A DNA stretch of 64,000 nucleotides from an uncultured Chitinophagaceae bacterium (lineage in GTDB: Bacteria > Bacteroidota > Bacteroidia > Chitinophagales > CAIOSU01), in assembly GCA_964502525.1 (NCBI GenBank), contig CAZCXH010000002.1, positions 28,031-92,030 on the forward strand, given 5' to 3'. Numbering within the stretch: position 1 is the first letter of the stretch; each line of letters opens with the position of its first letter. The position numbers and the translations under genes were made by a program. This document shows, piece by piece, positions 6,497 to 58,241 of the stretch. Under the pieces are notes generated by a model, which was not told the DNA's origin, made no database searches, and saw only the letters and a program-made list of their open reading frames with translations.

Positions 6497-6588
6497 ATTT
6501 GGTTATTTGTTGATCGGTTTATTGGTTAATTGGTAATAGGTATCTGGAATTCCCAATTAACCTATTAACGAATTAACCGATAACCGAA
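6497..6588. repeat. tandem-word hairpin (GGTTAAT/ATTAACC words) between tRNA-Leu and the tig start
   Basis: The left arm CGGTTTATTGGTTAATTGGTAATAGGT is complementary, with mismatches, to the right arm CCAATTAACCTATTAACGAATTAACCGATAACCG. Confidence 0.75.
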
Positions 6589-6594
6589 TGAAAG

Positions 6595-6676
6595 TGCGGA
6601 TGAAGGGACTCGAACCCCCAAGGATTGCTCCACCAGATCCTAAGTCTGGCGCGTCTGCCAGTTCCGCCACATCCGC
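6595..6676 (-). tRNA. tRNA-Leu, anticodon TAG, type II with long variable arm; CCA not encoded
   Basis: The reverse complement folds as acceptor GCGGATG/CATCCGC, D-arm GCG-GAACTGGCAGA-CGC, anticodon stem-loop CCAGA-CTTAGGA-TCTGG, a 13-nt variable arm, and T-arm GGGGG-TTCGAGT-CCCTT. Confidence 0.85.
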
Positions 6677-6689
6677 CTGAAAAACAGGG

Positions 6690-6697
6690 CAAAGTTA
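6690..6697 (-). promoter_or_regulatory. Bacteroidota -7 box TAACTTTG upstream of tRNA-Leu
   Basis: The reverse complement of CAAAGTTA is an exact TAnnTTTG match, 13 nt before the mature tRNA 5' end. Confidence 0.5.
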
Positions 6698-6791
6698 CAA
6701 AATCAGGATGGTAAGAAGTACCTGAAAAACGGTTTCGGCAACTAAATCCCCCGCATTTCCGTCTGAATTATTACCCTGAATTTTTGTTAAA

Positions 6792-9077
6792 ATGAAGGCG
6801 GCTCTATCTAAATTTACTTCCGCACCAAAGGTTATGACGCAAAATCCTGTCATATACGACATTGAACAGGAGCGCAAGGAAATCCTGAAGCGTTACCGCT
6901 ACCTGCTGAGGGTGGTCAAGCCGCGGCTCAATGATGAGCAGGACAAGCGCATGCTGCGCAAAGCTTTTGAGATAGCGCTTGAAGCCCATAAGGAGATGCG
7001 CAGGAAGTCCGGTGAGCCGTATATATTGCATCCCCTTGCCGTTGCAACTATCGTAGCGGAGGAGATGGGGATGGGCCCGACATCTGTCATCTGCGCGTTA
7101 TTGCACGACACCGTGGAGGACACGGAACTCTCCATTGAAGACATACGCGCGGAGTTCAGCGAATCCATCGCCAAGATCGTTGACGGGCTGACAAAAATCT
7201 CAGGGATATTTGACCTGCACAGCTCGCAGCAGGCGGAGAACTTCCGCAAGCTCGTTTTTTCGATCGCTGACGACATGCGCGTGATACTGATCAAGATAGC
7301 CGACCGTCTCCACAACATGCGAACGCTCGAACACATGCCGCGCGACAAGCAGCTTAAAATCGCTTCCGAAACTTCCTATCTGTATGCCCCGCTTGCCCAC
7401 CGTCTTGGATTCTATGAAATAAAATCGGAGCTGGAAGACCTCGCGATGAAATACACCCAGCGGGACATGTACCGCTTCATCGCCAAAAAGCTGAACGAAA
7501 GCAAGCGCGAGCGCAACAAATACATCAATGAGTTCATCAAGCCGATAGAGGAGCGGCTGAAGAAGGAAGGCTTGAAATTCCGCATCTACGGACGCCCGAA
7601 ATCCATTCATTCCATATGGAATAAGATGCAGACGAAGCAAGTGGATTTCGAGCAGGTGTATGATCTGTTCGCCATCCGCATCATTATTGACACCACGCCC
7701 GACAAGGAAAAGGCTGAGTGCTGGAGAGTTTATTCTATCGTTACTGACTTCTACCGTCCCAACCCCAGCAGGCTGCGCGACTGGATCAGCAACCCCAAGG
7801 CAAACGGTTATGAAGCCCTGCACACAACGGTAGTCAAGAACGGCAAATGGGTGGAAGTGCAGATACGCACCGAGCGGATGGATGAGATTGCCGACCGGGG
7901 ATATGCTGCGCATTGGAAATACAAGGAAGGCAGCAACGCCTCTACCGAAAGCGCACTGGACGAATGGCTGATGAAGATGCGCGAGATCATCAAGAATCCT
8001 GAATCGAGCGCGCTCGACTTCATGAACGATTTCCGGCTGAATCTTTATTCGCAGGAAATCTATGTGTTTACCCCGAAAGGTCAGTTGAAACGCCTGCCCA
8101 GCGGCTCCACCGCGCTGGATTTCGCTTTCGATATTCACACGCAGATCGGGATGTCATGCATTGGCGCCAAAGTGAATTACAAGCTGGTGCCCCTGAGCCA
8201 CACGCTCAGAACGGGAGACCAGGTGGAGATCATCACGTCCAAAAAACAAAAGCCAAAAGAAGACTGGCTCAACTTCGTCACCACCGGCAAGGCGAAAGCG
8301 AAAATCAAGAATGCGCTCAAGGAGGAAATGCGCCTCGTGGCTGCCGAAGGCAGGGAAATCCTCGAACGCAGGCTGCGCGCGCTGAAAGTGGACTTTTCAC
8401 CCGACCTTGCCCAAGCCCTTGCAAAACACTACAAGTTGCCTGGCACAAATGAGATGTATGCGGAGATAGTGTCGAAAAAAATTGACCTGAAAAATCTTGC
8501 AAAAGACAACTTTGACGGCAACAAGCTGGCAGCGCCTAAGGAGGCTGAGAAGAAGGTTGTTGAAAAACCAGAAAGCATCGAAGATGCCGTCCGCAAAACG
8601 CTGAACAGAAATGCAGAACTGCTGATCTTTGACGATAACATTGAAAAGATTGACTATAAGTTCGCTCAATGCTGCAATCCTATACCCGGTGATGACGTAT
8701 TCGGTTTCATCACCATCAATGAAGGGATCAAGATCCATAAAACCAACTGTCCGAATGCCACGCAGCTCATGAGCAATTACGGGTACCGCATCATCAAAAC
8801 ACGGTGGAACAAGCAGCATGAAATCGCATTCCTTACGGAACTGAAGGTGAACGGCATTGATGATGTGGGGGTGATGCAGAAGATCACCAACATCATTTCA
8901 GGAGAAATGCGGCTCAACATGCAAAGCATATCGCTGGACAGCAAAGACGGCATCTTCGAAGGTGTGATCACCGTTTTCGTCCACGACACCGGGCAGTTGG
9001 AAGATTTGATCACCCGGCTTAAAAAAATTGAAGGACTGCTTTCGATCAGCAGAAGCGACAACCTCGAAAAAAAATAG
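6792..9077 (+). CDS. bifunctional (p)ppGpp synthetase/hydrolase, RelA/SpoT family
   Basis: The domains are HD hydrolase (HPLAVATIVAEE...LLHDTVEDT), synthetase (RPKSIHSIWNKM, YEALHTTV), TGS and ACT. The true start may be the Met at 6834. Confidence 0.95.
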   Translation: MKAALSKFTSAPKVMTQNPVIYDIEQERKEILKRYRYLLRVVKPRLNDEQDKRMLRKAFEIALEAHKEMRRKSGEPYILHPLAVATIVAEEMGMGPTSVICALLHDTVEDTELSIEDIRAEFSESIAKIVDGLTKISGIFDLHSSQQAENFRKLVFSIADDMRVILIKIADRLHNMRTLEHMPRDKQLKIASETSYLYAPLAHRLGFYEIKSELEDLAMKYTQRDMYRFIAKKLNESKRERNKYINEFIKPIEERLKKEGLKFRIYGRPKSIHSIWNKMQTKQVDFEQVYDLFAIRIIIDTTPDKEKAECWRVYSIVTDFYRPNPSRLRDWISNPKANGYEALHTTVVKNGKWVEVQIRTERMDEIADRGYAAHWKYKEGSNASTESALDEWLMKMREIIKNPESSALDFMNDFRLNLYSQEIYVFTPKGQLKRLPSGSTALDFAFDIHTQIGMSCIGAKVNYKLVPLSHTLRTGDQVEIITSKKQKPKEDWLNFVTTGKAKAKIKNALKEEMRLVAAEGREILERRLRALKVDFSPDLAQALAKHYKLPGTNEMYAEIVSKKIDLKNLAKDNFDGNKLAAPKEAEKKVVEKPESIEDAVRKTLNRNAELLIFDDNIEKIDYKFAQCCNPIPGDDVFGFITINEGIKIHKTNCPNATQLMSNYGYRIIKTRWNKQHEIAFLTELKVNGIDDVGVMQKITNIISGEMRLNMQSISLDSKDGIFEGVITVFVHDTGQLEDLITRLKKIEGLLSISRSDNLEKK

Positions 9078-9617: not shown

Positions 9618-9624
9618 TGCATTA

Positions 9625-9657
9625 GACCTGACAGGTTTTCGAAAAACCTGTCAGGTC
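9625..9657. repeat. GACCTGACAGG palindromic element, copy 2 (between divergent thpR and udg starts)
   Basis: GACCTGACAGGTTTT-CGA-AAAACCTGTCAGGTC has perfect 15-bp arms. Confidence 0.9.
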
Positions 9658-9674
9658 ATCAAGGTTACGAGAGT

Positions 9675-9682
9675 TATTTTTG
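9675..9682 (+). promoter_or_regulatory. -7 box TATTTTTG upstream of the uracil-DNA glycosylase gene
   Basis: Exact TAnnTTTG match, with 9-12 nt before TTG 9692 / ATG 9695. Confidence 0.45.
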
Positions 9683-9691
9683 GAATTTTGA

Positions 9692-16701: not shown

Positions 16702-16768
16702 AAAAAATGCAAAAGGCAAATTTGCAAAGGGCAATCGCTTTCTTGCCTTTTGCACTTTGCCTTTTTCT
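16702..16768. repeat. tandem-word hairpin (AAAGGCAA/TTGCCTTT words) between convergent genes
   Basis: TGCAAAAGGCAAATTTGCAAAGGGCAA-TCGCTTTC-TTGCCTTTTGCACTTTGCCTTTTT. Confidence 0.8.
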
Positions 16769-16798
16769 TGGGCTTGTTCGATTTCAAATTGAGGTGTA

Positions 16799-18117: not shown

Positions 18118-18172
18118 ATCATCACCGAATTATCAAATTATCGAATCACCGAATCAGCAAATCACCGAATCA
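18118..18172. repeat. tandem 8-nt word array YAYCRAAT (reverse complement of ATTYGRTR), single arm, abutting the icd stop
   Basis: CACCGAAT TATCAAAT TATCGAAT CACCGAAT CAGCAAAT CACCGAAT. Confidence 0.8.
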
Positions 18173-19450
18173 CACCTCCACCAAATCCATGCTGTTGATG
18201 ACCTCCGTTCCAAACTCAGAACACTTCAGCAGCGTGGCTCCTTCCATGAGGCGATGGAAATCATAGGTAACTTTCTTGTTTGCGAAAGCCGTTTCCAGTC
18301 CTTTGATGATGAGGTCTTTCGCCTCAAGCCAGCCCATGTATTCCAGCATCATCGCGCCTGAGAGTATCACCGAACTGGGGTTCACCTTATCCTGACCGGC
18401 ATATTTGGGAGCCGTGCCGTGCGTGGCTTCAAAGATGGCAGCCCCGATTTCGTAGTTGATATTGGCGCCCGGAGCGATGCCTATTCCTCCAACTCCCGCA
18501 GCGAGCGCATCGGAGATATAATCGCCATTCAGGTTGAGCGTTGCCAGCACGGAATATTCCTGCGGTCTTAACTGAATCTGCTGCAGGAACGCATCCGCGA
18601 TGGAATCTTTAATGATCACCTTTCCTCCTTCAGTTGCCTGTTTCATCATCTTGTTCGCCTGCTCCGACCCCTTTTCCTGAACTATCTTATCATACTGTTG
18701 CCAGGTGAACACCTTGTCTCCGAATTCTTTTTCCGCCAGTTCATATCCCCATTTTTTGAAACCGCCCTCAGTGTATTTCATGATGTTGCCCTTATGCACT
18801 AATGTCAGTGAAGGTTTTTTCTGCTCAATGGCATACCTGAGGGCAGCTCTCACCAGCCGCTCAGTGCCTTCCTTTGAAACCGGCTTGATGCCGATGGATG
18901 ATGTTTTCGGGAAACGTATCTGGTTCACCCCCATTTCGTTTTGCAGGAAAGCAATGACCTTGTTCGCTTCCGGTGTGCCCGCATTCCACTCTATACCCGC
19001 GTAAATGTCCTCTGTGTTTTCACGGAACACCACCATGTCAATCCATTCCGGATGCTTCATGGGCGATGGGACGTTCGTGAAATACTGCACCGGGCGCACA
19101 CAGGCATAGAGATCAAGCTTTTGCCGCAAAGCCACATTGAGCGAACGGATGCCGCCCCCAACGGGCGTTGTCAAAGGACCTTTGATTGCGATGAGATACT
19201 TGGTGATGGCTTCCAGCGTTTCTTCCGGCAGCCAGTCGCCTTTCAGATTAAAGGCTTTCTCCCCGGCATAAACCTCCATCCATTGAATCTTTCGCTTGCC
19301 GTGATAGGCTTTCTCCACAGCGGCATCCAGCACACGCACCGATGCCGCCCAGATGTCGGGTCCGGTGCCATCGCCCTCTATAAATGGAATAACCGGGTTG
19401 TCAGGAACTTGCAACTTGCCGTTTTTGATGGTTACTTTTTCGCTAGACAT
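18170..19450 (-). CDS. icd: NADP-dependent isocitrate dehydrogenase
   Basis: [21 protein letters not shown] and NLNGDYISD motifs are present, with the 426-aa length typical of prokaryotic homodimeric IDH. Confidence 0.95.
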
Positions 19451-24638: not shown

Positions 24639-24720
24639 CAGGTTTTCGAACTTGCACTGAGTAGTCCCCGATGGTGTATCCCGATCACAGTTCGTTTTTT
24701 ACATTTGCTTCGGGATAAAC
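24639..24720 (+). repeat. about 85-nt intergenic repeat, copy B (after argH)
   Basis: CAGGTTTTCGAACTTGCACTGAGTAGTCCCCGATGGTGTATCCCGATCACAGTTCGTTTTTTACATTTGCTTCGGGATAA. Confidence 0.85.
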
Positions 24721-26957: not shown

Positions 26958-27944
26958 ATGGACATTCGCTGTGCCGGAATCATAAAACCGAAAACTGAAA
27001 CAATGACTATCCTCGTCACCGACAACATTCACCTCTCTTTCTTCAAGGAGCTTGAAGAGGGCAAGTTCGATATTGACTATCGTCCGGAGATTGACCAGCA
27101 GGGAATTCTCGACATCATCCACGATTTTGACGGCATCGTCATTAACAGCAAGACCACTGCTGATAAGGCTCTTATTGACAAAGGGAAAAATCTGAAGTTC
27201 ATCGCCCGCATGGGTTCGGGAATGGAAATCGTGGATGTGGCGCATGCAAAACAAAAAGGTATCGCATGCATCAGTTCACCGGAAGGCAACCGCGATGCCG
27301 TTGCGGAACATGCCATCGGAATGCTGTTGTCGTTGTTCAACCACATTCACACTGCCGATGCGGAGGTGCGAAGCTCCCAATGGGAGCGCGAGAAGAACAG
27401 GGGCATGGAGATGGGCGGCAAGGTCGTTGGAATCTATGGTTATGGCAACACCGGCAGCGCACTCGCAAAGAGGCTGAGCTGCTTTGATGCGCAGGTGCTC
27501 GCGTACGACAAATACAAATCCAATTTCAGCGAAGGTCATGTGAAGCAAAGCACGCCTGAAGATATTTTTGACAAAGCTGACGTGCTAAGCCTCCATCTTC
27601 CGCTCACAGATGAAACAAGGTTTCTCGTTGATTATGCCTTTCTTGCCCGTTTCAAAAAACGCATTTGGCTCATCAACACCGCGAGAGGCGCCATCATCAG
27701 GACGGCTGACCTGCTCAAAGCAATCCGGGATGGGAAGGTGATGGGGGCTGCGCTCGATGTGCTCGAAAATGAAAAGTTCGATAACCTGACTGCTGAAGAC
27801 AAGCAATGGTTTGACGAACTGATTAAAGAACGCAGGGTGCTGCTGACGCCCCACATTGCAGGACTTACCAGGGAGTCAAAGGAAAAGATTGCGAGAATAC
27901 TTGCCACGAGAATAAAGGAATTGCGAAGCACGAATGACGAATGA
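26958..27944 (+). CDS. D-isomer-specific 2-hydroxyacid dehydrogenase (phosphoglycerate dehydrogenase-like)
   Basis: The NAD-binding motif GIYGYGNTG is present, with LINTARG and LLTPHIAG catalytic-region motifs. The likely true start is the Met at 27003. Confidence 0.85.
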   Translation: MDIRCAGIIKPKTETMTILVTDNIHLSFFKELEEGKFDIDYRPEIDQQGILDIIHDFDGIVINSKTTADKALIDKGKNLKFIARMGSGMEIVDVAHAKQKGIACISSPEGNRDAVAEHAIGMLLSLFNHIHTADAEVRSSQWEREKNRGMEMGGKVVGIYGYGNTGSALAKRLSCFDAQVLAYDKYKSNFSEGHVKQSTPEDIFDKADVLSLHLPLTDETRFLVDYAFLARFKKRIWLINTARGAIIRTADLLKAIRDGKVMGAALDVLENEKFDNLTAEDKQWFDELIKERRVLLTPHIAGLTRESKEKIARILATRIKELRSTNDE

Positions 27945-28022
27945 CGAATTGAGAACAAGGCTTCATCAATTACGAATGCAATTCAACTAATTCATGAATT
28001 CATAATTCGTCATTCGAAATCG
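27929..28022. repeat. tandem-word hairpin (ACGAATG words) overlapping the dehydrogenase stop codon
   Basis: The left arm CACGAATGACGAATGACGAATTGAG pairs with the right arm ...CATAATTCGTCATTCGAAATCG. Confidence 0.75.
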
Positions 28023-29326: not shown

Positions 29327-29420
29327 GTGCTGTTCTGCTATATATAATATGCTGATTTGCTGATGCGTCACAAGAGTTATCCACCTTAAACTTCAACATA
29401 TCAACATGTTATCAAATTTG
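29327..29420. repeat. tandem-word hairpin (TGCTGAT / ATCAACAT words) between convergent genes
   Basis: ATGCTGATTTGCTGATG pairs with CAACATATCAACATGTTATCAA. Pairing needs G:U only if read as minus-strand RNA. Confidence 0.55.
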
Positions 29421-35772: not shown

Positions 35773-36027
35773 AACGTGAGTTATGGATTCAAAACTATCT
35801 CGCAACTGTCCTCATTGCCATCCGCTTTAGCGGATGGCAATGAATTTCAATAAGTTAAGTTACCCTGGTTGTTTCAAGTCTTCCGAAGGAGGACTTGGAA
35901 CATGGGATAGAGGAAGGTCTTTCGACCTTCCGGCAAGACGAAAGTCTTGCCGTTATTACGAATCACAAGTGTCCCTTCGGAACACTTGCGATAACGGGTA
36001 TCTTGTCGGTAATCCATAACTCACGTT
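35773..36027. other. 255-nt multi-hairpin element closed by a perfect 17-bp stem (candidate structured RNA / 5' leader, or nested palindromic repeats)
   Basis: AACGTGAGTTATGGATT (35773-35789) pairs perfectly with 36011-36027. Inside are five near-perfect hairpins: 35815-35840, 35875-35897, 35912-35931, 35932-35951 and 35966-35988. There is also a CCGTTAT/ATAACGG helix. Confidence 0.5.
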
Positions 36028-36222: not shown

Positions 36223-37197
36223 TTAAACAATTTCATGCACATCAATATCCGCGCATTTGAAATGCCCTTCCGGGCAGTTGCGGAAGCCATGGATGCCGCA
36301 TGGTCTGCAGGAGAGATGTTCCCGGGTTTCTGCAACCTTCGACTTGCCGGAAAGAGGCGTAAAACCAAATTCCGGAACTGTTGAACAATAAACCGCTGTC
36401 ACCGGAGCATCCACCGCTGATGCCAAATGAAGCGGGGCAGAGTCGTTCACGTAATTCATCACTGCGCTTTTCATCAGCGCTGCCGACTGCATGAGGTTGA
36501 TCTTGCCCGCAAGGCTGATGACTCTTTCTCTTGCCGATTTGCCGCGGATATATTCGCACAAAGCGGCATCGTCCTTTCCTCCGAGCAAATAAATTGCAAA
36601 GGACTTGTCAATCAGCCCGATCAATTCAATCCATTTTTCCTTTGGCAACTGCTTGGTGAACCAGATGGAGCTGGGGGCGATGCAAACAAAACTTTCATCT
36701 TTTTTCACCTGCGCGAAATCTTCCGCTGAAGGATATATTTTGGGTTTCACGAAACTGTCGTCCGTAAGATGCCTGATGAGCATGAGGTTGCGCCCGGTTT
36801 CGTGCACCGGCATTTCTTTTGAGCCGAGGATGTGTTTGACTCTTTTGCCGAAAAGGAACGACATCGGATTTTTATCGAAACCGGCTGTCTCCTTAGCGCC
36901 TGAAAAAGCCGCGAGCAACCCGGTTGAGAAAAAACGCTGCACGGTAATCACCGCATCATACTTTCTTTTTCTGATTTCTCCCAGCATCCGCAGCAGGTTG
37001 GCGGTTTTGTTTTGCGATTTATCCCAAACCAAAATCTCATGGATGTGCGGGTTGTTTGCAAGCAGGATTTCGTTTCCTTTGCGCAGCAGGAAATCAATCC
37101 TTGCCTGCGGGTAAAACGCATGAAGCTTTTCAACTAACGGTGTGGCGAGGATGACGTCACCGATAAAGGCAGTTTGGATGATGAGGAAGTTGTTCAG
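36223..37197 (-). CDS. glycosyltransferase family 9 (LPS heptosyltransferase-like)
   Basis: The frame is open to 37197 and encodes LNNFLIIQTAFIGDVILATP, the conserved GT9 N-terminus. There is no ATG/GTG/TTG before the TTG at 37032, so a CTG (37197) or other non-canonical start is implied. Confidence 0.8.
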   Translation of the reverse strand: MNNFLIIQTAFIGDVILATPLVEKLHAFYPQARIDFLLRKGNEILLANNPHIHEILVWDKSQNKTANLLRMLGEIRKRKYDAVITVQRFFSTGLLAAFSGAKETAGFDKNPMSFLFGKRVKHILGSKEMPVHETGRNLMLIRHLTDDSFVKPKIYPSAEDFAQVKKDESFVCIAPSSIWFTKQLPKEKWIELIGLIDKSFAIYLLGGKDDAALCEYIRGKSARERVISLAGKINLMQSAALMKSAVMNYVNDSAPLHLASAVDAPVTAVYCSTVPEFGFTPLSGKSKVAETREHLSCRPCGIHGFRNCPEGHFKCADIDVHEIV

Positions 37198-37347
37198 ATG
37201 TTAGATGGCGGATGTTAGATATTAGATATTAGATATTGGATATTAGATATTGGATGTTAGATGTTAGATATTGGATGTTAGATATTGGATGTTAGATATT
37301 TAGATATTGTTCGTCTAACATCTAATATCTAATATCTAAAATCTAAC
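37198..37347. repeat. 16 tandem heptamers ATRTTRG followed by an inverted arm of 4.7 CYAAYAT units
   Basis: The units are ATGTTAG/ATATTAG/ATATTGG, and 14 of 16 fit ATRTTRG. The right arm is CTAACAT CTAATAT CTAATAT CTAAAAT CTAAC. The element fills the whole murB-GT9 intergenic gap. Confidence 0.9.
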
Positions 37348-40493: not shown

Positions 40494-40528
40494 AAGACCT
40501 GACGGGGTTTTATAACCTGTCAGGTCTT
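40494..40528. repeat. GACCTGACAGG palindromic element, copy 3 (next to the IS256 remnant)
   Basis: AAGACCTGACGGGGTTTTATAACCTGTCAGGTCTT is an imperfect copy. Confidence 0.8.
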
Positions 40529-40639
40529 GATAACTTTTCGGTGGAAACAGTTTGGAGTTTGAAGTTTAATAAGATTTTTTTTAGCCCGTCAAGGATTGAA
40601 AGCACTTCCTGCAATTCCTTTTTTGAACAACATCACGGT

Positions 40640-40810
40640 GCAAACCAAAGCCAAGCCTACAAGGTAGTCTTCAAAAGCTGGCGCCACAACTGGGAACGCC
40701 TGAGTAACTTCTTCAAATATCCGCCCGCATTAAGACGAGTGATTTACACCACCAACCCCATAGAAAGCTATCACCGCATGATTCGCAAAGTCACCAAAAC
40801 AGACTTAACG
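40640..40810 (+). pseudogene. C-terminal remnant of an IS256-family (Mutator-type) transposase
   Basis: ...KSWRHNWERLSNFFKYPPALRRVIYTTNPIESYHRMIRKVTKT matches the conserved IS256 transposase C-terminus. No upstream catalytic region remains. Confidence 0.6.
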
Positions 40811-43839: not shown

Positions 43840-43949
43840 TCCTTAAGGGTTTTTGTTAAGTCCTTATCAAGCTATTATCCAATTCGCCCGGCAAAGTAAA
43901 GAGAAAATGGTTATTATCAAAACGGTGTTGAATGCCCGGTGCTAAGTGT

Positions 43950-44098
43950 TCAATGGTTTTGCCTTTGCTTATTGCCTTTTACCTTTTGTCCCTTGCCTAT
44001 TGCCTATTGGCCTTTTACTAATGGAATTCGGATGGTTGATTTCAATCCCTTTGCCTATTGGCCTTTTACCTTTTGCCCTTTGCCTTTTCCACTTTTTT
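43950..44098. repeat. T-rich tandem-word array (TTGCCTTT / TTGCCTAT words) with an internal 19-nt direct repeat
   Basis: TTGCCTATTGGCCTTTTAC occurs twice, flanked by TTTGCC/CTTTTGCC words. There is no inverted arm. Confidence 0.75.
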
Positions 44099-44107
44099 CA
44101 AAGATTG

Positions 44108-45397
44108 CTACCCGGCAATCTTCCTGATCGCCTCCACCAGCCTGTCAAGATCGGAAATCTTCGTGTAAACGTGGGGAGTGATGCGGATGCCTTCAAAAGC
44201 ATCATGCACGATGGTGGTGGTGTAGATTTTATAATCCTCGAAAAGGGCTTTGTGCATGTCGCCCGCTTTCATGTCTTTGATTCTGAAATTGCACAGCCCG
44301 CAGGAAAATTCTTTTTTCAGCGAAGTATTGAATTTTATTGCGGGTATTCCGGCAACCGCATTCGCCCAGTAATCTTTCAGGTAGCGCAGCCGCGCCTCTT
44401 TCCGCTGGATGCCGATGCCGTTGTGGAAGTCAATGGCCTCGTTGATGGCAAGTTCGGCAGGGAAGGAGCGCGTGCCGAGGTGCTCGAACTTGCTCATCCT
44501 GTCAGCCTGGTCTTCGGGGCTGCCAAACAGCGACCATATCTTGCTGATTTTTTCTTTTTTCACGTACAGCATTCCGCAGCCGAACGGGGCGTTCAGCCAT
44601 TTGTGCAGGCTGGTACCGAAATAGTCGCAATGCAGATCGGGTATCTTGAAATCGAGCTGCGCGAACGAATGCGCCCCATCCACCACCACCTCCAGCCCTC
44701 GCTCATGCGCCATGTCGCAGATTTCGCGCACCGGCATGATCTGCCCGGTGGTGTAGTTGATATGGCAAACAACAATCACTTTTGTTTTCGAGGTGATTGC
44801 TTTTTTGAAACGATTCACTACCTCCTCCTTGTCTTCTGCCGGAGTGGGGATGGAGATTTTTACAATCTTCACGCCCTCCCTGCGCGCGCGCTGGTCAAGC
44901 CCCGCCATCACGGTGGGATAATCCTGGCTGGTGGTGATGACCTCATCATCTTTTTTCAGATCCATGCCGAGTATCACGGTTTCCAACGCTTCTGTCGTAT
45001 TACGGCAAAGCGAAATCTCTTCCTGCGCGCATCCTGCGAGCACCGACAGCCTGCGCTTGATGGTTTCGCGCTGGCGCGTGAATTCACCGAACATATAATA
45101 TGTGGGAGCCTGGTTTGCCAGCTTGTAATAGTGCAGGAACGACTCCTGCACCACCTTCGGCTGAGGACACACTCCGCCATTGTTGAGGTTGATGAACAGC
45201 GAGGTGGGCGTGTATTCCTGCTGAATCTGGAACCAAAAGTCCTCATCAGCGGCTGCCTGCTCCGTGCTTTTGTGCTCAAACGAGGCGAGCGCTTTTCTTT
45301 TTTCGAGAAAATCACCGGAGGTGAAAAGCGTCATTGACAATCCGCCTAAGGAAATTGCGCCCATGTCGGTTAGGAATTTTCTGCGTGAGTGGGTCAC
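44108..45397 (-). CDS. aminotransferase class V-fold PLP enzyme with twin-arginine signal
   Basis: The N-terminal SRRKFLTDMGAISLGG is a Tat motif, and the PLP-lysine region is TSLHKWLNAPFGCGMLY. Confidence 0.85.
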   Translation of the reverse strand: MTHSRRKFLTDMGAISLGGLSMTLFTSGDFLEKRKALASFEHKSTEQAAADEDFWFQIQQEYTPTSLFINLNNGGVCPQPKVVQESFLHYYKLANQAPTYYMFGEFTRQRETIKRRLSVLAGCAQEEISLCRNTTEALETVILGMDLKKDDEVITTSQDYPTVMAGLDQRARREGVKIVKISIPTPAEDKEEVVNRFKKAITSKTKVIVVCHINYTTGQIMPVREICDMAHERGLEVVVDGAHSFAQLDFKIPDLHCDYFGTSLHKWLNAPFGCGMLYVKKEKISKIWSLFGSPEDQADRMSKFEHLGTRSFPAELAINEAIDFHNGIGIQRKEARLRYLKDYWANAVAGIPAIKFNTSLKKEFSCGLCNFRIKDMKAGDMHKALFEDYKIYTTTIVHDAFEGIRITPHVYTKISDLDRLVEAIRKIAG

Positions 45398-45417: not shown

Positions 45418-45497
45418 GTTCACGGTTTACACGTTTACGTTTACGGTTGCACAAGAAAATAGAACCGTAAACAAGTAAACCGTAAACGTGTAAACCC
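45418..45497. repeat. tandem-word hairpin, GTTTACR family, copy 1 (divergent promoter region)
   Basis: CACGGTTTACACGTTTACGTTTACGGTT ... AACCGTAAACAAGTAAACCGTAAACGTGTAAACCC. Confidence 0.85.
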
Positions 45498-46266: not shown

Positions 46267-46327
46267 TTACCGTTTACGGTTACACAATACAACAAACTGT
46301 AAACGTGTAAACCGGAAACCGTAAACT
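46267..46327. repeat. tandem-word hairpin, GTTTACR family, copy 2 (convergent gene ends)
   Basis: CCGTTTACGGTTACAC ... CTGTAAACGTGTAAACCGGAAACCGTAAAC. Confidence 0.85.
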
Positions 46328-47348: not shown

Positions 47349-47417
47349 GGTCGTTTACGGTTTACACGTTTACTGTTTACATGTTGCTAAAACCTTAAAC
47401 ATGTAAACCGTAAACCG
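47349..47417. repeat. tandem-word hairpin, GTTTACR family, copy 3 (divergent promoter region)
   Basis: CGTTTACGGTTTACACGTTTACTGTTTACATGTT ... AACATGTAAACCGTAAACCG. Confidence 0.85.
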
Positions 47418-47446: not shown

Positions 47447-47893
47447 ATGAAAATTATCAGGATTGAAAGCATGGGGGAAAAGTTTAAGTCGCTTGCGGGC
47501 GCAAAGTCATTGTTCGATGTCGTCAGGAAGAAGCATGTTGCCGCCACTCCTGAGGAAAAGATACGGCAGTTGATGATCCAGTATTTGATCGAAAAGAAAA
47601 ACTTCCCGCGCTCATTGCTTGGCATAGAGGTTTCTCTTTCCATCAATCGCCTTGCCAGGCGATGCGATATAGTCGCTTACAAAAACAGTTTGCCGGTGAT
47701 GATTGCGGAGTGCAAAGCGCCATCCATTAAAATTGACCAGTCGGTTTTCGAACAAGCATCGCGGTATAATCTGGCGTTAAGAGTTCCCTACCTGCTGGCG
47801 ACAAACGGTGGGGTAACGCTATGCTGCAAAGTTGATTTGAAGGAGAGCAGTTTTGAGTTTTTGGAGGAGATACCGGAATACCAACAACTTTAA
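47447..47893 (+). CDS. type I restriction enzyme HsdR N-terminal-domain-like small protein
   Basis: 148 aa with a PD-(D/E)xK-like core (RCDIVAY...IAECKAP). It is commonly found divergent from holA in Bacteroidota. Confidence 0.65.
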   Translation: MKIIRIESMGEKFKSLAGAKSLFDVVRKKHVAATPEEKIRQLMIQYLIEKKNFPRSLLGIEVSLSINRLARRCDIVAYKNSLPVMIAECKAPSIKIDQSVFEQASRYNLALRVPYLLATNGGVTLCCKVDLKESSFEFLEEIPEYQQL

Positions 47894-47909
47894 ACTTTAA
47901 ACTCCAAAT

Positions 47910-48039
47910 GGCTTTGTTGCATGAATAACTTCAATACTGATAAGGGTTTCGGAAGTTTTCAAGTTGTTTTTTCGTTAAATTTCGACATCAAAAATCTTGA
48001 AACGCCTGTAAAATCAGGGTTTATTCGTGCAACAAAGCC
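47910..48039. repeat. 130-nt element with 19-bp terminal inverted repeats between convergent genes
   Basis: GGCTTTGTTGCATGAATAA (47910-47928) pairs with TTATTCGTGCAACAAAGCC (48021-48039) with 1 mismatch. There is an inner GTTTTCAAG / CTTGAAAC stem. Confidence 0.7.
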
Positions 48040-48058
48040 ACTCCAAACTCTAAACTTC

Positions 48059-51594: not shown

Positions 51595-51734
51595 GGGGGA
51601 AAGTTACAAAAGGGGATTTTGATTATGTCATATACTCTCATCTATTACAGAGCAGTAGCCTCCGGGTATTATTTATTTAAAGAACCAATTCGCCAGGATG
51701 AGCAGAACACTCCCCTCAGTCTTTTCCCCGGCTA

Positions 51735-51876
51735 TGGCGCAAGCGTCCGCGCTTGTGTCCATCATCCTGAAGCGTCCGCTTACCCAGCTCTGGCGCGGGC
51801 GTCCGCCCGTGTCCAGTTATTTACAAGCGTCCGCTTTTATTTGTCGCACCAGCGGGAAGCTGGCGCGAGGTGAGGG
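51735..51876 (+). repeat. 142-nt GC-rich multi-hairpin direct repeat, copy A (a further partial unit lies at 51889-51917)
   Basis: It aligns to 52572-52714 with about 6 differences, all substitutions being transitions. Confidence 0.9.
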
Positions 51877-51944
51877 GAACCCTTAAACTGGCGCAAGCGT
51901 GCGCGCTTGTGCCCATCCCTCCCTTGGGGGAGGTTGTAGGGTAA

Positions 51945-52110
51945 GTTTGAACCTTAAATCCGCAAACTATTTGAAATGACAGGTCTCCCGCTGATTTCGC
52001 TGATTCAAGCAGATGAATGTTAGAAAAGAATATTTTCTGCGGAAATCTGCGGTATCTGCAGGAAATTGATTGTTCATGGAATTTGAGTTTGCGGAATTTA
52101 GGTTGAAGCT
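51945..52110. repeat. imperfect about 32-nt inverted repeats enclosing CTGATTTCGCTGATT / CTGCGGAAATCTGCGG words
   Basis: GTTTGAACCTTAAATCCGCAAACT... pairs with ...AGTTTGCGGAATTTAGGTTGAAGC. Similar CTGCGRAAAATCAGCG words occur at 3502-3517 and 26572-26587. Confidence 0.6.
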
Positions 52111-52141
52111 AAAACCTCCGGAGTCGCGCAGAGGTTTTTTT
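52111..52141 (+). terminator. intrinsic-terminator-like hairpin with T-run
   Basis: AAAACCTC-CGGAGTCGCGCA-GAGGTTTT is followed by TTT. Confidence 0.4.
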
Positions 52142-52220
52142 GCGCATCACAAAACCGGAAGCGTTTTTGCTTGTGAAACTTTACTTCGTTGTAAGGGTTT
52201 GTTATCTTTGAAGGAAATCT

Positions 52221-52508: not shown

Positions 52509-52571
52509 ACCTTTTGTATCTTCCTGCAATCAGCCAAGGCCTGCAACTGCATATTCATCTACCCCTCAAAC

Positions 52572-52714
52572 TGGCGCAAGCGTCCGTGCTTGTGCCCATC
52601 ATCTTGAAGCGTCCGCTTACCCCAACTCTGGCGCGGGCGTCCGCCCGTGTCCAGCTATTTACAAGCGTCCGCTTTTATTTGTCGCACCAGCGGGAAGCTG
52701 GCGCGAGGTGAGGG
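52572..52714 (+). repeat. 143-nt GC-rich multi-hairpin direct repeat, copy B
   Basis: See copy A. It contains the GGCGCAAGCG-TCCG-YGCTTGTGYCC and GGCGCGGGC-GTCC-GCCCGTGTCC hairpins. Confidence 0.9.
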
Positions 52715-52840
52715 TTGAGGGGATTCTTCGCTACGCTCAGAATGACGCTTTGATTAAGCCAATAGATACCGCTGAACTTCTGGCAAGGTCGCTACCAAAC
52801 AGAGCCGCTGAAGAAACGAAGTCAGTACGCGCCAAAACCA

Positions 52841-52950
52841 ATTCGGTGATTCGGTAATTCGATGATTCGATAATGAAATACACCATCGAATTATCAAATT
52901 ATCGAATCATCACATCACCGAATCATCGAATCACCGAATTATCGAATTAC
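52841..52950. repeat. tandem-word hairpin, ATTCGRTR family (4 left units, 8 right units)
   Basis: The left arm is ATTCGGTG ATTCGGTA ATTCGATG ATTCGATA. The right arm has eight YAYCRAAT units and runs into the TACTTTTG box. Confidence 0.9.
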
Positions 52951-52955
52951 TTTTG
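52948..52955 (+). promoter_or_regulatory. -7 box TACTTTTG at the flavoprotein gene start
   Basis: Exact TAnnTTTG match. It overlaps the TTG at 52953, so the real start may be the GTG at 52962. Confidence 0.4.
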
Positions 52956-54938: not shown

Positions 54939-54960
54939 CGTTTCCGCTATTTTTGCGCCC

Positions 54961-56463
54961 GTGCCTTCCATCAAAAAAATCCTTGTCGCCAATCGCGGTG
55001 AGATAGCGTTGCGCGTGATGCGCTCCGCCAGGGAAATGGGCATTAAAACTGTGGCAGTTTTTTCCGATGCCGACAGGACGATGCCCTTCGTGAGATTTGC
55101 GGACGAAGCGATTCACATCGGAGGTTCGTTGTCATCACAATCTTATCTGGTGGCGGAAAAAATAATTGATGCCGCGCGGAAAACAAAAGCTAACGCGATT
55201 CATCCCGGCTACGGCTTTCTTTCGGAAAACGAATCCTTTGCTGCGAAAGTCAAAAAAGCCGGAATCATTTTTGTTGGTCCGGATGCAAAGTCCATTGAGA
55301 TGATGGGAAACAAACTGGCGGCTAAAGAAATTGCAAAGAAGCTGAAGGTGCCGCTCGTTCCCGGAACGGAGAAAGCTATCGCCAATCCAAAACAGGCGGC
55401 AGATGAAGCGAAGAAAATCGGCTTTCCCGTTTTGCTGAAAGCGGCCGCTGGCGGTGGCGGAAAAGGGATGCGCGTGGTCAATAAAGAATCGGAACTCGCT
55501 CCTCAGATGGAAAGGGCGCAAAGCGAGGCGCTTTCGTCATTCGGAGATGATTCCGTTTTCATTGAGAAATATATTTCGTCTCCCCGTCATATTGAAATTC
55601 AGATTCTTGCCGACAGTCACGGCAATGTGGTTCACCTGTTCGAGCGCGAATGTTCCATCCAGCGCAGGCATCAGAAGCTAATCGAGGAAGCGCCATCGTC
55701 AGTTCTTACGGAAGAATTGAGAAATAAAATGGGCGAATGTGCCGTTGCAATAGCGAAAGCATGCAAGTACATGAGTGCCGGAACGGTGGAGTTTTTGATG
55801 GATGAAAAGCTCAACTTTTATTTCCTCGAAATGAACACGCGATTGCAGGTGGAACATCCCGTTACGGAAATGATAACGGGAATGGATTTGGTGAAAGAGC
55901 AGATTCGGGTAGCGCAAGGAGAAAAGTTGAGTGTCAAACAAAAAGACTTATCCATTCGCGGACACGCGATTGAATTAAGAGTGAATGCTGAAGATCCCGC
56001 AAATGATTTCCTCCCGAATGCAGGTGCGTTAAAGACCTATAAGAAGCCCTGCGGTCCTGGCATCAGAGTTGATGATGGTTATGAAGAAGGAATGGAAATC
56101 CCTATCTATTACGACCCCATGATTGCAAAACTCATTACGCACGGCAGTGACAGGGAAGAAGCCGTTCACCGCATGGTGAGGGCAATTGATGAATATGCGA
56201 TAACGGGGATGAAGACGACTCTTGGTTTCGGAAAATTCATCATGAACCATAAAGAATTCAGCAAAGGAAACCTCAGCACAAGATTTATCGAACAGCACTT
56301 CAACCCGGAAAGCCTTACATCTCATAAGGATGACGAGGAAGTCATCGCTTCCCTGATTGCCGCAACAATAATGGGCAACAACAACCAACCCAAATCCGTA
56401 AACCAAAAACAGGAACGGGTATCCTCCCGCTGGAAACAAAACCGTTTGAACCTTGAGCTTTAA
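54961..56463 (+). CDS. accC: biotin carboxylase (acetyl/acyl-CoA carboxylase BC subunit), no adjacent BCCP or carboxyltransferase
   Basis: ATP-grasp motifs KAAAGGGGKGMRVV and EMNTRLQVEHPVTE are present. The protein is 500 aa with a C-terminal extension. Confidence 0.9.
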   Translation: MPSIKKILVANRGEIALRVMRSAREMGIKTVAVFSDADRTMPFVRFADEAIHIGGSLSSQSYLVAEKIIDAARKTKANAIHPGYGFLSENESFAAKVKKAGIIFVGPDAKSIEMMGNKLAAKEIAKKLKVPLVPGTEKAIANPKQAADEAKKIGFPVLLKAAAGGGGKGMRVVNKESELAPQMERAQSEALSSFGDDSVFIEKYISSPRHIEIQILADSHGNVVHLFERECSIQRRHQKLIEEAPSSVLTEELRNKMGECAVAIAKACKYMSAGTVEFLMDEKLNFYFLEMNTRLQVEHPVTEMITGMDLVKEQIRVAQGEKLSVKQKDLSIRGHAIELRVNAEDPANDFLPNAGALKTYKKPCGPGIRVDDGYEEGMEIPIYYDPMIAKLITHGSDREEAVHRMVRAIDEYAITGMKTTLGFGKFIMNHKEFSKGNLSTRFIEQHFNPESLTSHKDDEEVIASLIAATIMGNNNQPKSVNQKQERVSSRWKQNRLNLEL

Positions 56464-57196
56464 AGATCATTTTTCAACCCAGTCAGCCGACTACGCCAGA
56501 TACAGGCCGCGCTATCCGAAAGCACTTTACGATTTCCTGCTCGCACATGCGAAAGAGAAAAAAATTGCATGGGATGTGGCAACGGGCAACGGGCAGGTAG
56601 CCGTTGAATTAGCGGAACATTTCGAAAAAGTAATTGCAACTGATGCGAGCGAAAGTCAGATCAGCCATGCGTCTTCACATCCAAAAGTTATTTACAAGGT
56701 GAGCATGGCTGAAAACTGCGGTCTTCCGGATGGAATTGCAGACCTGATTACCGTTGGACAGGCACTGCATTGGTTTGACTTTGAGAAATTTTTCAGCGAA
56801 GTAAAACGAACGGCTAAGCCGGGATGTTTTTTTGCCGCGTGGGGATATAAGCTGCACCATATTTCTCCCGAGGTTGACAAGGTGATCAGCCGCTTTTATG
56901 AGGAGATTGTCGGTCCCTATTGGCCGCGAGAGAGAACCTACGTTGACAATGCCTACAACAACATACCACTGCCGCTTATCCCTGTTGCAACACCTCCGTT
57001 TGAACTTCAGTGGAGATGGAACATGAATGAATTGCTGGGGTATCTCAGCACATGGTCAAGCACTCAGCTTTATCTCAAGTATCAGGGCCGTAATCCGCTG
57101 GAACTGATTGAAGGCGATTTGCAGCAGGCATGGGGCAATCCGCTGGAAGATTTGGAAGTAGTGTGGCCCATTTTCATGAAAGCAGGGCACTTGTAA
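56453..57196 (+). CDS. class I SAM-dependent methyltransferase
   Basis: Motif I is WDVATGNGQ and post-I is ATDASESQ. The TTG start overlaps the accC end by 11 nt. Confidence 0.8.
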   Translation: MSFKDHFSTQSADYARYRPRYPKALYDFLLAHAKEKKIAWDVATGNGQVAVELAEHFEKVIATDASESQISHASSHPKVIYKVSMAENCGLPDGIADLITVGQALHWFDFEKFFSEVKRTAKPGCFFAAWGYKLHHISPEVDKVISRFYEEIVGPYWPRERTYVDNAYNNIPLPLIPVATPPFELQWRWNMNELLGYLSTWSSTQLYLKYQGRNPLELIEGDLQQAWGNPLEDLEVVWPIFMKAGHL

Positions 57197-57251
57197 GTTA
57201 TCCCCTCCGCATCGGCAGCAGCAAGGCATTGAGGGGCTGTCATTCAAATTG

Positions 57252-57259
57252 TAACTTTG
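57252..57259 (+). promoter_or_regulatory. -7 box TAACTTTG immediately upstream of eboA
   Basis: Exact TAnnTTTG match, with 6 nt before the ATG at 57266. Confidence 0.5.
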
Positions 57260-58168
57260 CCCACCATGCATCAGGTGAATCTTCAGGCTGCGCAAAGCTT
57301 TTTCCATTCCGTTCTGTCTCGCAATTCCACCGGAGATTCGCTAACATGGTTGACGGAAAAGATAAATAGGTCTGGAAAGAAATTTTCAGAAAAGGATTTT
57401 TACCTCACCTTCAGCCTGCTCCCGCGCTATTTCAGCAAAGACCAGTTGAAATTCTCTGAAGAGCCTGAGAAGACCGGGGCGCAAATAAGGCAGGGCTTTA
57501 ACCCTTCGGACTTCACCATTGCACAGACAGCAAGAGTGTTGCTTCTGCTGATGATTCCAACGGAGGATGAAAATCTCTTTTTAAAAATCCTGAATAATCT
57601 TTTCACCACAGCGGAAGTAAATGAGCTGGTTGCGCTTTATTCAGCGCTTCCGCTTTTATCTTATCCTGAATCGCTGAAGTCCCGGACGGCTGAAGGCATA
57701 AGAAGCAACATGGCGGTAGTGTTCGATGCCGTTGCTTTAAACAATCCTTATCCGGCAGATTTTTTGGATGATGACGCCTTCAACCAGATGGTGTTGAAAG
57801 CCGTATTCATCGAGCGCTCATTGGACAAAATTTATAAGCTCGATTCAAGAGCCAATAAAGATCTCGCGCGCATGTTGTCTGATTATGCCCACGAGCGTTG
57901 GGCGGCATCGCGTTATGTGACACCGGAATTATGGCGACCGATCGGTCCCTTTATTGATGACAGCTTGCTGAAAGACATTGAACGCCTGCTTGAACAAGGA
58001 AGCGAACTCGATAAACAGGCGGCTGCGTTAGCCGTTCAAAGCAGTAAATCGCTGAAAGCAGCAGAATTGGTTCCTGAGCCTTTAAAATTAAAAGCAGAAA
58101 AAAAAGAATTTGACTGGCACAGTATTTCCAAGAAATGGTTCGCTGAAAGGAATGCGGTGATTCGGTGA
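57257..58168 (+). CDS. eboA: EboA-like protein (ebo cluster gene 1)
   Basis: The position, size and motifs (EGIRSNMAVVFDAVALNNPYP, NQMVLKAVF, LSDYAHERWAA) fit what I remember of EboA. The likely start is the ATG at 57266. Confidence 0.7.
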   Translation: MPTMHQVNLQAAQSFFHSVLSRNSTGDSLTWLTEKINRSGKKFSEKDFYLTFSLLPRYFSKDQLKFSEEPEKTGAQIRQGFNPSDFTIAQTARVLLLLMIPTEDENLFLKILNNLFTTAEVNELVALYSALPLLSYPESLKSRTAEGIRSNMAVVFDAVALNNPYPADFLDDDAFNQMVLKAVFIERSLDKIYKLDSRANKDLARMLSDYAHERWAASRYVTPELWRPIGPFIDDSLLKDIERLLEQGSELDKQAAALAVQSSKSLKAAELVPEPLKLKAEKKEFDWHSISKKWFAERNAVIR

Positions 58169-58241
58169 TTTGATAATTATCAATAAATACAAAACTCCAT
58201 TTCCATTATCGAATCATCAAATTATCGAATTATCGAATTAC
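58154..58241. repeat. tandem-word hairpin, ATTCGRTR family, between eboA and eboB
   Basis: The left arm GCGGTGATTCGGTGATTTGATAATTATC covers the last eboA codons and the stop. The right arm is TTATCGAATCATCAAATTATCGAATTATCGAATTAC. Confidence 0.85.

Follow-up and report, generated by a model that had tools for sequence, protein, structure and literature searches.

Dispersed intergenic arrays of 7-8 nt tandem words in a 64-kb window of an uncultured Chitinophagales genome

Genes, intergenic gaps and word arrays

The stretch of DNA analysed here, called the window throughout, is 64 kb of the genome of an uncultured Chitinophagales bacterium (Bacteroidota), and the subject is a set of intergenic elements that are built from degenerate tandem units, or words, of 7-8 nt. 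Statements about the whole genome extrapolate from this window and from a few short contigs of relatives, to which L-numbers are given below. By Pfam, the genes of the window are ordinary housekeeping genes, among them tig, relA/spoT, icd, murB, holA, aat, gdh, ccm genes and an ebo cluster. G+C content lies between 44 and 52% across the window, with no compositional island. The nearest species-representative genome is a Chitinophagales metagenome-assembled genome (MAG) whose holA is 76% identical, and the homologues of holA and murB that carry names come from Chitinophagales, Saprospiraceae and Lewinellaceae.

When arrays are defined by a period of 6-9 nt and at least 2.5 copies in Tandem Repeats Finder (TRF), the window holds 22 of them, whereas 20 dinucleotide shuffles gave 1.2 on average and never more than 5. 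Eighteen are intergenic, an enrichment over coding DNA with a binomial p of 3e-15, since intergenic DNA makes up only 6267 nt, or 9.8% of the window, on a greedy map of open reading frames (ORFs) corrected by Pfam. A nineteenth array, at 27930, straddles a stop codon. Together the arrays span ~1180 nt, roughly 19% of the intergenic DNA. A first-pass annotation had listed twelve loci with tandem words of 7-8 nt, and both TRF and the sequences confirm arrays at all twelve (Table 1); TCAGCGC words at 5110-5139 and GTTTRRA words at 40549, 47886 and 48041 were absent from its list. It had also reported that the same families recur at distant sites, and they do: ATTCGRTR at 18.1, 52.9 and 58.2 kb, and TTGCCTT at 16.7 and 44.0 kb. 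The GTTTAC family is found at 45.4, 46.3 and 47.4 kb.

That the arrays are artefacts of short-read metagenome assembly can be given hardly any credence. Admittedly, the largest of them, E6, consists of about 160 nt of near-identical units and exceeds a typical read, so that its units may have been miscounted from short reads. Nevertheless, an independent Logan contig (L001, from SRR14932634) is 100% identical to the window over 46.0-48.0 kb, including the GTTTAC hairpins E9 and E10 at 46.3 and 47.4 kb, and the same organism was also assembled from a second sequencing run. Moreover, homologous elements occur in relatives from other samples, and at least 120 metagenome contigs carry such words.

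Table 1. Word arrays and hairpins of the window (z, folding z-score on the plus or minus strand)
Element	Positions	Description	Basis
E1	6497-6592	Hairpin of degenerate 8-mers, TTGGTTAA / CCAATTAA	TRF, inverted repeat
E2	16702-16770	Hairpin, AAAGGCAA / TTGCCTTT, convergent gap	z = -3.7 (+), -4.3 (-)
E3	18121-18173	Direct array only, 6.6 units of ATCRYCGA, reverse complement of ATTCGRTR	TRF
E4	27930-28016	Hairpin, ACGAATG / CATTCGT	Inverted repeat; z = -3.6 (+), -2.8 (-)
E5	29327-29420	Weak degenerate pair, TGCTGAT / ATCARCA, convergent gap	z = +0.4 (+), -2.3 (-)
E6	37191-37346	Largest element: ~16 GATRTTR units, then 5 inverted (TCTAAYA)	TRF score 134
E7	43959-44095	Two direct arrays in the same orientation, TTGCCTT-type words, around a 40-nt core	
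E8	45418-45496	GTTTAC(N1-2) hairpin, divergent gap aminotransferase / aat	Inverted repeat; z = -6.7
E9	46267-46327	GTTTAC hairpin, convergent gap aat / holA	z = -4.3
E10	47352-47417	GTTTAC hairpin, divergent gap holA / HSDR_N gene	Inverted repeat; z = -4.8 (+), -6.6 (-)
E11	52840-52950	ATTCGRTR hairpin, 4 left-arm and 8 right-arm units	Inverted repeat, 84% complementary
E12	58155-58240	ATTCGRTR hairpin between eboA and eboB (tatD)	z = -3.5, + strand only
Extra	5110-5139	Array and hairpin, TCAGCGC words, convergent gap	TRF
Extra	40549-40567	Short GTTTRRA array (AGTTTGGAGTTTGAAGTTT)	TRF
Extra	47886-48058	GTTTRRA array (47886-47903, 48041-48058) split by a 132-nt MITE (miniature inverted-repeat transposable element; 47909-48040)	

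As had been proposed, the elements occupy convergent, tandem and divergent gaps alike, and the gene map bears this out. Among gaps of at least 40 nt, arrays are present in 5/7 convergent, 8/22 tandem and 2/9 divergent gaps, numbers that are too small for significance; the trend towards convergent gaps fits selection acting as a filter. E3 lies in the tandem gap between icd and the next gene. Several elements reach very close to genes. E1 takes up the entire spacer from the 3′ end of tRNA-Leu (6594, minus strand) to the start codon of tig (6492). The left arm of E4 overlaps the stop codon of a 2-hydroxyacid dehydrogenase gene (27942-27944; gene identified by Pfam), while that of E12 runs over the last codons of eboA. 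E1, E6, E10 and E11 all come within 1-8 nt of starts: the end of E10 is 8 nt from the ATG of holA, and E11 stops 2 nt short of the predicted start of a FAD-dependent halogenase-like gene.

E6 spans the junction of murB and a GT9 gene, where an in-frame TAA stop within the array lies two codons upstream of the N-terminus that is conserved in this GT9 heptosyltransferase (LNNFLIIQTAFIGDV...). This N-terminus starts with CTG at 37197 on the minus strand (37195-37203), L132 and L134 have TTG there, and the first canonical start codon lies 55 codons downstream. Three readings offer themselves: translation starts at CTG, the start is damaged, or the base is an error. Arrays of this kind distort gene calls by extending ORFs through them, and they may break or mis-size short-read assemblies. 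For instance, the public GT9 call in L132 reads through the arrays and thereby acquires a false N-terminal extension, and the spurious ORF 43946-45337 in the window is another case.

The ebo-type cluster at 57257-63996 contains eboA-like, TatD-family, UbiA prenyltransferase, DHQ-synthase-like and phosphodiesterase genes, as well as a faint AP_endonuc_2 match that corresponds to a xylose-isomerase-like TIM barrel; E12 lies between its first two genes.

Folding, variation and the RNA-level reading

The folding energy of each element was compared with that of 100 dinucleotide shuffles and expressed as a z-score for both strands. The claim that the words fold as hairpins stands at nine loci (6497, 16702, 27929, 37198, 45418, 46267, 47349, 52841 and 58154), with z-scores from -3.5 to -8.3. 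In E1, for example, arms of 48 nt are 77% complementary and the minimum free energy (MFE) is -34.6 kcal/mol (z = -5.2), while E6 has an MFE of -56.0 kcal/mol (z = -6.7) and E11 a z-score of -7.5. The claim fails at 18118 and 43950, which hold direct units with no inverted partner and give z-scores of about 0 (-0.6 on the plus and +1.1 on the minus strand for E3; +0.4 and +0.3 for E7), and the pair at 29327 is weak, with z = -2.3 on one strand only. By inspection, the order of variant units in one arm of E11 and of E6 is not mirrored in the other arm, so that no recent copying from arm to arm has occurred.

The pattern of variation was assessed by setting every base against its counterpart one period downstream and counting transitions and transversions. 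Units had been described as differing almost only by transitions, and this is true of two families, ATTCGRTR (30:4) and GATRTTR (19:3, all from E6), although each has only two variable positions, so that few independent events underlie these counts. Among single elements, E11 gives 15 transitions to 2 transversions and E3 gives 8 to 2. By contrast, the GTTTAC family is an invariant hexamer followed by a variable spacer of 1-2 nt (G, AC, T or AT), and in GGTTAAT arrays transversions outnumber transitions. There is thus no general rule. In 115 unrelated arrays on metagenome contigs of other organisms, among the matches listed, transitions and transversions stand at 268:273. Per type of substitution, transitions are then roughly twice as frequent as expected at random, which is ordinary mutational bias.

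Transition-only variation had been read as a means of keeping arms paired in any register through G:U pairs, as would suit an RNA element that tolerates slippage. The strands speak against this. In the five hairpins that lie between co-directional genes (E1, E4, E6, E11 and E12), the antisense strand folds better than the sense-strand RNA in 4/5 cases, as in E6 (sense -34.2, antisense -56.0 kcal/mol). This sense-strand deficit is the opposite of what selection for a G:U-tolerant mRNA structure would produce; in addition, the unpaired array E3 is just as biased towards transitions as the paired ones.

The more specific suggestions of an attenuator, an RNase barrier or a protein-binding array fare no better, as the elements have no Rfam match, coincide with no terminator-like site and are not conserved at orthologous sites (see below). 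In Rfam 15, at gathering score, the only match in the window is tRNA-Leu and the word elements have none. With permissive settings, E6 and E11 match nothing but precursor models of plant and animal miRNAs, and these below threshold, which simply means that they are generic long hairpins. A scan for intrinsic terminators and sigma-70 promoters over 36-55.9 kb found no word hairpin among 34 terminator-like sites. The stems are A+T-rich and have no T-run, and the elements also occur in divergent gaps. Intrinsic terminators were rejected on these grounds, in agreement with the first-pass view that the elements are not simply terminators. Strict matches to the Bacteroidetes -7 motif TAnnTTTG are too few in the window to show where promoters lie with respect to the arrays; one lies 13 nt upstream of tRNA-Leu, and there is none between tRNA-Leu and tig. 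Overall, no evidence of a dedicated RNA function was found by folding, Rfam or terminator scans, as far as such predictions can tell.

Turnover at orthologous sites and a lasting vocabulary

Orthologous gaps were compared in the relatives L126-L130, L132, L134 and L002, and the sequences of the elements are not conserved there. At the E10 site, L129 (86% identical in holA), L128 (77%) and L002 (76%) have no hairpin and gaps of 30-40 nt. These three contigs and the window have in common the prefix CTG..GAAAAATAAATAACTTG, after which the window continues into a 66-nt GTTTAC hairpin. In L130, whose holA is 91% identical at the amino acid level, the same hairpin occupies the same place with a different loop, and the unit numbers differ: two full left and five right units in L130, three plus a partial left and four right in the window. 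Similarly, holA and aat overlap in L126 and L128, where the window has a 111-nt gap with E9, and the gap between eboA and eboB is 21 nt in L128 compared with 89 nt in the window, where the left arm of E12 replaces the last eboA codons.

Elsewhere, the word itself has changed. At the murB-GT9 junction, three related sequences (the window at 100%, L132 at 94% and L134 at 88% identity in murB) have three sets of words between coding flanks that align at about 90%. The window has TAGATRT words in 16 direct and 5 inverted units; L132 has direct words only, five units of AAGTTTR and then four of CACATCAG; and L134 has a TGCTRAT / ATYAGCA hairpin. Where the window has E8, the hairpin of L126 is built from TAGAAT / ATCTATC words; in the window, matching remnants (AAGATAGGA ... 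TTATCTT) persist on the outside and the GTTTAC hairpin lies between them. E8 appears to be nested in what is left of an older AAGATAGGA...TTATCTT hairpin. Within about 6-14% protein divergence, elements change the number of their units and even the word. These comparisons show that the elements are insertions into, or expansions within, gaps that were once very short, at the level of the DNA, and that they turn over much faster than the flanking genes.

Whereas sites turn over, words persist. Regular expressions for eight word families were applied to the relatives, to outgroups and to block-shuffled windows. The words at the murB junction of the relatives (GTTTRRA and TGCTGAT) are families that occupy other sites in the window. 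L108 carries GTTTAC, GTTTRRA and ATTCGRTR; L092 has five copies of CATTCGT; in L094, TGCTGAT merges into ATTCGRTR; and GTTTRRA is present in L132 together with TGCTGAT, and in L127, while L130 has GTTTAC. L092 and L108 carry proteins that are annotated as Chitinophagales MAG. It was by their ATTCGRTR words that L092, L094 and L108 were found, and in these contigs the independent evidence is therefore confined to the other families that co-occur. By comparison, three outgroup Bacteroidota loci (54 kb) give 0-1 word matches, and block-shuffled windows about 0. Over a clade sample of ~150 kb, a vocabulary of ATTCGRTR, GTTTAC, GTTTRRA, TGCTGAT, CATTCGT and TAGATRT is therefore common to related genomes at non-orthologous sites.

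Within the window, several copies have more in common than a word. The loops of E8 and E9 both start with GGTT(G/A)CACAA (GGTTRCACAA), the junction of loop and right arm is the same in E8, E9 and E10, and the loop motif TTGTGNAA is also found in the L130 ortholog of E10. In E3, E11 and E12, the rare unit YATCAAAT is the second unit of the AC-rich array and is followed by TATCGAAT. Beyond the window, 61 nt of E11, made up of its left flank and its first units, recur in L092 beside unrelated genes. Common loops and the order of rare units show copies within the genome to be, in all likelihood, derived from one another. The apparent 85% identity between E3 and the right arm of E11 was rejected as evidence of kinship, since it is no better than expected for two arrays of the same degenerate word; kinship rests instead on the rare units and loops in common. 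Fast turnover of sites, a lasting library of words and paralogous copies, taken together, argue for elements that spread as units, with slippage altering them afterwards.

These observations bear on a purely local origin, in which each array arises by slippage of a resident 7-8-mer in a pre-existing hairpin, with no copying between loci; the first-pass annotation had mentioned a slippage-prone, repeat-generating process as one possibility. Part of this idea holds, in that the number of units varies from ortholog to ortholog, the same gaps contain different words in relatives, and heptamers, according to Mrazek 2007 as cited in PMC4679880, slip more readily than any other unit. Nevertheless, slippage leaves the clade-wide words and the common loops and unit order unexplained. 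The same words occur at three or more unrelated loci of the window and in other genomes of the clade, for which the chance expectation is about 0, and the loops and rare-unit order that copies have in common already disfavour the proposal. As a complete account, local slippage is very improbable.

Tandem words as such are much more widespread. At least 120 public metagenome contigs, with G+C contents from 31% to 67%, contain 2.6 units of ATTCGRTR by exact pattern, and the matches listed include contigs of Flammeovirgaceae and Acidobacteriota. The contigs listed that carry this seed hold 447 arrays in 817 kb, with three or more arrays in 49/63 loci of at least 5 kb. However, only 5/120 contigs among the matches listed have, within 150 nt, an inverted array of the same family, which indicates that the habit of tandem words is widespread, whereas the hairpin form is characteristic of this lineage and a few others.

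Two further observations come from these contigs. On L024 (118-326; a metagenome contig of 67% G+C), a GAATCCC / GGGATTC hairpin merges into CGAATCAT words in the same array, and GAATCCC / GGGATTC is a type of word that has been reported in Xanthomonas (PMC4692102). This suggests that words containing GATTC may be favoured for tandem amplification in very different bacteria. In addition, L041, L042, L090, L091, L110 and L119 contain a complex repeat in which ATTCGATAATTCGATAATTCG lies between CCGTGA-rich units (...TCCGTGTGAAGAAAGAAATTCGATAATTCGATAATTCGTGACA...), with many copies per contig.

The window also contains repeats of other kinds. The element at 47909-48040, inserted within a GTTTRRA array, is a MITE by its 20-nt terminal inverted repeats (TIRs; GGCTTTGTTGCAYGAATAA) and 8-bp target-site duplication (TSD; TTTGGAGT). 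Its site is empty in L126-L129 (gap 5-18 nt), L127 has an uninterrupted counterpart of the GTTTRRA array, and one TIR-like match occurs in L060. A 255-nt element at 35773-36027 has perfect 17-nt inverted repeats (AACGTGAGTTATGGATT / AATCCATAACTCACGTT) and four short G+C-rich hairpins of the tetraloop type; it has no Rfam match and looks like an insertion, as the alignment with L132 (94%) ends beyond its left boundary. A 34-nt palindrome that resembles repetitive extragenic palindromic (REP) sequences, AGACCTGACAGGTTTT(N3-4)AAAACCTGTCAGGTCT, is found at 466-500, 9624-9657 and 40495-40528, the first copy with a 12-nt tandem duplication of its left arm (454-476). The third lies in a 398-nt gap together with a GTTTRRA array and a remnant of an IS256/Mutator-family transposase (~40643-40798, plus strand; PF00872, profile positions 299-350 only).

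Other intergenic repeats include two copies of ~100 nt at 3527-3633 and 24639-24718, which begin with CAGGTTTTCGAACT and are 84-89% identical. A G+C-rich repeat of ~140 nt with many short hairpins (TGGCGCAAGCGTCCGCGCTTGTG...) is present at 51735-51876 and 52572-52714 (94-98% identical), with a third, partial copy at 51889, in the large non-coding gaps 51595-52220 and 52509-52952. Finally, L092 carries four tandem 76-nt repeats with TTCGCTGCGTAGGACTCCGCTCAGAATGAC at 1-300, and the related motif TTCGCTACGCTCAGAATGAC lies just upstream of E11 (52720-52750).

Origin of the elements and comparison with known repeats

The explanation preferred here, with confidence only a little better than even, is that the elements are satellite-like families of dispersed intergenic repeats, which spread by copying of whole units, change by slippage and are tolerated at harmless sites. 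Each element is an array of degenerate 7-8 nt units; in this lineage, most arrays have beside them an inverted counterpart with the same word, which allows single strands to fold back. Copying between gaps could proceed by ectopic recombination, by template switching or through an enzyme acting in trans. Thereafter, replication slippage would add or remove units of 7-8 nt, fold-back template switching would give rise to the inverted pairs, and units would decay mostly by transitions. Selection would act mainly as a filter, such that elements persist at gene ends, and especially in convergent gaps, where they do little harm. Effects on RNA, such as a stem-loop at the 5′ or 3′ end of a transcript, would be a side effect and not the cause of the elements.

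Several points weigh against this explanation. Neither a mobilising enzyme nor a TSD nor near-identical copies were found in the 64-kb window and the sites compared, and the copying step is thus inferred. The genome-wide claim extrapolates from a single 64-kb window and a small number of short contigs from relatives. Selection for binding sites would equally be expected to keep a vocabulary constant across the clade. Further, word hairpins stand at positions where other taxa have hairpins, as in L126 at the E8 site and in L018, a distant Bacteroidota contig with palindromes of the ordinary kind between tRNA-Leu and tig. In some cases, a word element may thus now serve in place of a terminator or stabiliser.

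A different account, unlikely but to be taken seriously, is that the elements are non-autonomous fold-back mobile elements, similar to MITEs or REP sequences, which are moved in trans by a transposase whose gene lies elsewhere in the genome, for instance one that recognises hairpins. The tandem words would then be sub-repeats of terminal inverted repeats, as in the Foldback transposons of eukaryotes. Presence or absence at otherwise conserved sites is compatible with this, as are the loops in common among paralogous copies, the three GTTTAC copies within 2 kb, which look like local hopping, and the apparent position of E8 inside the centre of an older hairpin. The genome does contain true MITEs (47909-48040; 35773-36027) as well as the IS256-family remnant, and the 61 nt of flank and arm that recur in L092 lie in a different gene context. 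Nevertheless, comparison with empty sites reveals no TSD at E10, E12 or E6, the ends of the elements are not conserved and carry no GTAG or CGTC tag, copies are never near-identical, and E3 and E7 are direct-only arrays. At the murB-GT9 junction, words seem to have been changed in place (CACATCAG in L132, CATTAGCA in L134, CATCTAA in the window), and the window contains no candidate transposase.

Slightly less probable again is that selection keeps the words as functional cis-elements, either arrays bound by a protein on RNA or DNA, or hairpins that end or stabilise transcripts. The main point for it is the L018 spacer, since it implies that some word hairpins may sit where a hairpin is useful. 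It would also explain why the vocabulary is conserved across the clade while sites turn over, and it accords with arrays that abut start and stop codons, with the enrichment in convergent gaps (5/7) and with the regulatory roles proposed for TAACTGA (PMC4679880) and for heptamer repeats of Nostoc (bioRxiv 10.1101/2022.06.06.494920). By contrast, the word family differs at one orthologous junction between relatives at 94% and 88%, and close relatives manage without the element, with gaps of 30-40 nt, even beside the essential holA. Orientation to transcription is inconsistent and the sense RNA usually folds worse; the stems are not G+C-rich and are not followed by a U-tract; a period of 7-8 nt does not match the helical repeat of DNA; and the neighbouring genes are unrelated housekeeping genes.

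More speculatively, and with rather little confidence, the clade may have a sequence-specific word system, that is, an enzyme that seeds arrays and copies them to hairpin loops and to the boundaries of genes, or a protein that binds arrays in RNA or DNA and thereby couples the expression of neighbouring genes. If this were true, such a word-writing or word-reading system would be a tractable Bacteroidota counterpart to the 35-year-old puzzle of the cyanobacterial short tandemly repeated repetitive (STRR) sequences.

STRR heptamers were reportedly described by Mazel et al. in 1990 in heterocystous cyanobacteria. The view that the word elements belong to no named class has to be revised, as intergenic heptamer tandem repeats already have names: STRR, long simple sequence repeats (LSSR) and TAACTGA repeats (PMC4679880, PMC4692102). 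MacGregor 2015 found heptamer repeats of the word TAACTGA between the genes of Beggiatoaceae, of cyanobacteria and of five Bacteroidetes; the gaps that contain them also hold other heptamer repeats, whereas those of close relatives are shorter and free of repeats, and the sets are nearly all direct (169 direct, 1 indirect), forward with respect to the downstream gene and often just upstream of the start (PMC4679880). In the account given there, LSSR (Mrazek, Guo and Shah 2007) are statistically defined direct repeats with units of 5-11 nt, among which heptamers are the most abundant, perhaps through polymerase slippage (PMC4679880). Rehm et al. 2015 considered heptameric repeats barely characterised, citing three heptanucleotides of Calothrix (STRR); they reported GGGAATC repeats in Xanthomonas and Nostoc, and heptamer repeats that vary strongly in length and sequence between close relatives of Xanthomonas (PMC4692102). 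In Nostoc, contiguous TTTTGAA/TTCAAAA heptamers lie near start codons (bioRxiv 10.1101/2022.06.06.494920).

STRR sensu stricto were rejected because the relatives are Chitinophagales and because the canonical STRR1-3 words and HIP1 are absent: the window has no tandems of CCCCAGT, TTGGTCA, CAACAGT, TTTTGAA or TAACTGA, and no HIP1. The TAACTGA network of MacGregor 2015 was rejected since there are no TAACTGA tandems and the orientation of the arrays is mixed. REP/REPIN elements were rejected because the ends of nine hairpins show no consistent GTAG or CGTC tag and because the arms consist of degenerate tandem words. Pfam scans of 28 of the ~60 ORFs in this 64 kb of genome found no REP-associated tyrosine transposase (RAYT; IS200/IS605-like Y1 transposase), the IS256-family remnant being the sole transposase-like match. 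MITEs were rejected because E10, E12 and E6 lack a TSD relative to empty sites and copies are not near-identical.

The resemblances are nevertheless considerable. As in STRR and LSSR-type repeats, head-to-tail units of 5-11 nt are in excess and mostly non-coding (18/22 arrays), and copy number differs in close relatives, as E10 compared with L130 and the murB-GT9 junction demonstrate; as in STRR, at least four families recur in the window and five are common to L092, L094, L108, L127, L130, L132 and L134. The elements are like STRR and the Nostoc repeats in their tandem units of ~7 nt, in having few word families at many intergenic loci throughout a clade, in occurring in both orientations and in often lying beside start codons. 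Unlike STRR, they belong to a Chitinophagales host, use other words in degenerate units of 7 or 8 nt, and mostly form inverted pairs that make long hairpins, an arrangement that was not found described as a rule for STRR. With LSSR and GGGAATC repeats they share a heptamer-scale excess, a non-coding bias, variation between close relatives and a proposed origin by slippage; they depart from the description of LSSR in fold-back pairing, a clade vocabulary and paralogous copies with common loops, and from GGGAATC repeats in that the words have no G-quadruplex potential. TAACTGA repeats are similar as intergenic heptamer arrays, often upstream of starts, in Bacteroidetes hosts whose relatives have short gaps, but here inverted pairs dominate and orientation is inconsistent. 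Like REP/REPIN elements and MITEs, the word elements are small, dispersed intergenic palindromes that vary in presence, prefer gene ends and may affect mRNA, though only incidentally; unlike them, they have tandem-repetitive arms, no tag, no combination of TIR and TSD, and no near-identity.

The word elements are thus best described as STRR/LSSR-like dispersed repeat families in Chitinophagales, most of them fold-back. It was known that heptamer-scale repeats are over-represented in some bacteria, with origin and function unsettled. To this the window adds a Chitinophagales lineage in which such repeats make up about a fifth of the intergenic DNA, mostly as inverted pairs. Individual sites turn over completely within about 6-12% protein divergence while the vocabulary of words lasts across the clade, which is the "library" behaviour of satellite DNA in eukaryotes. 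Finally, the loops and unit order common to copies point to spread as units. The three findings together make the clade well suited to a search for the mechanism of spread.

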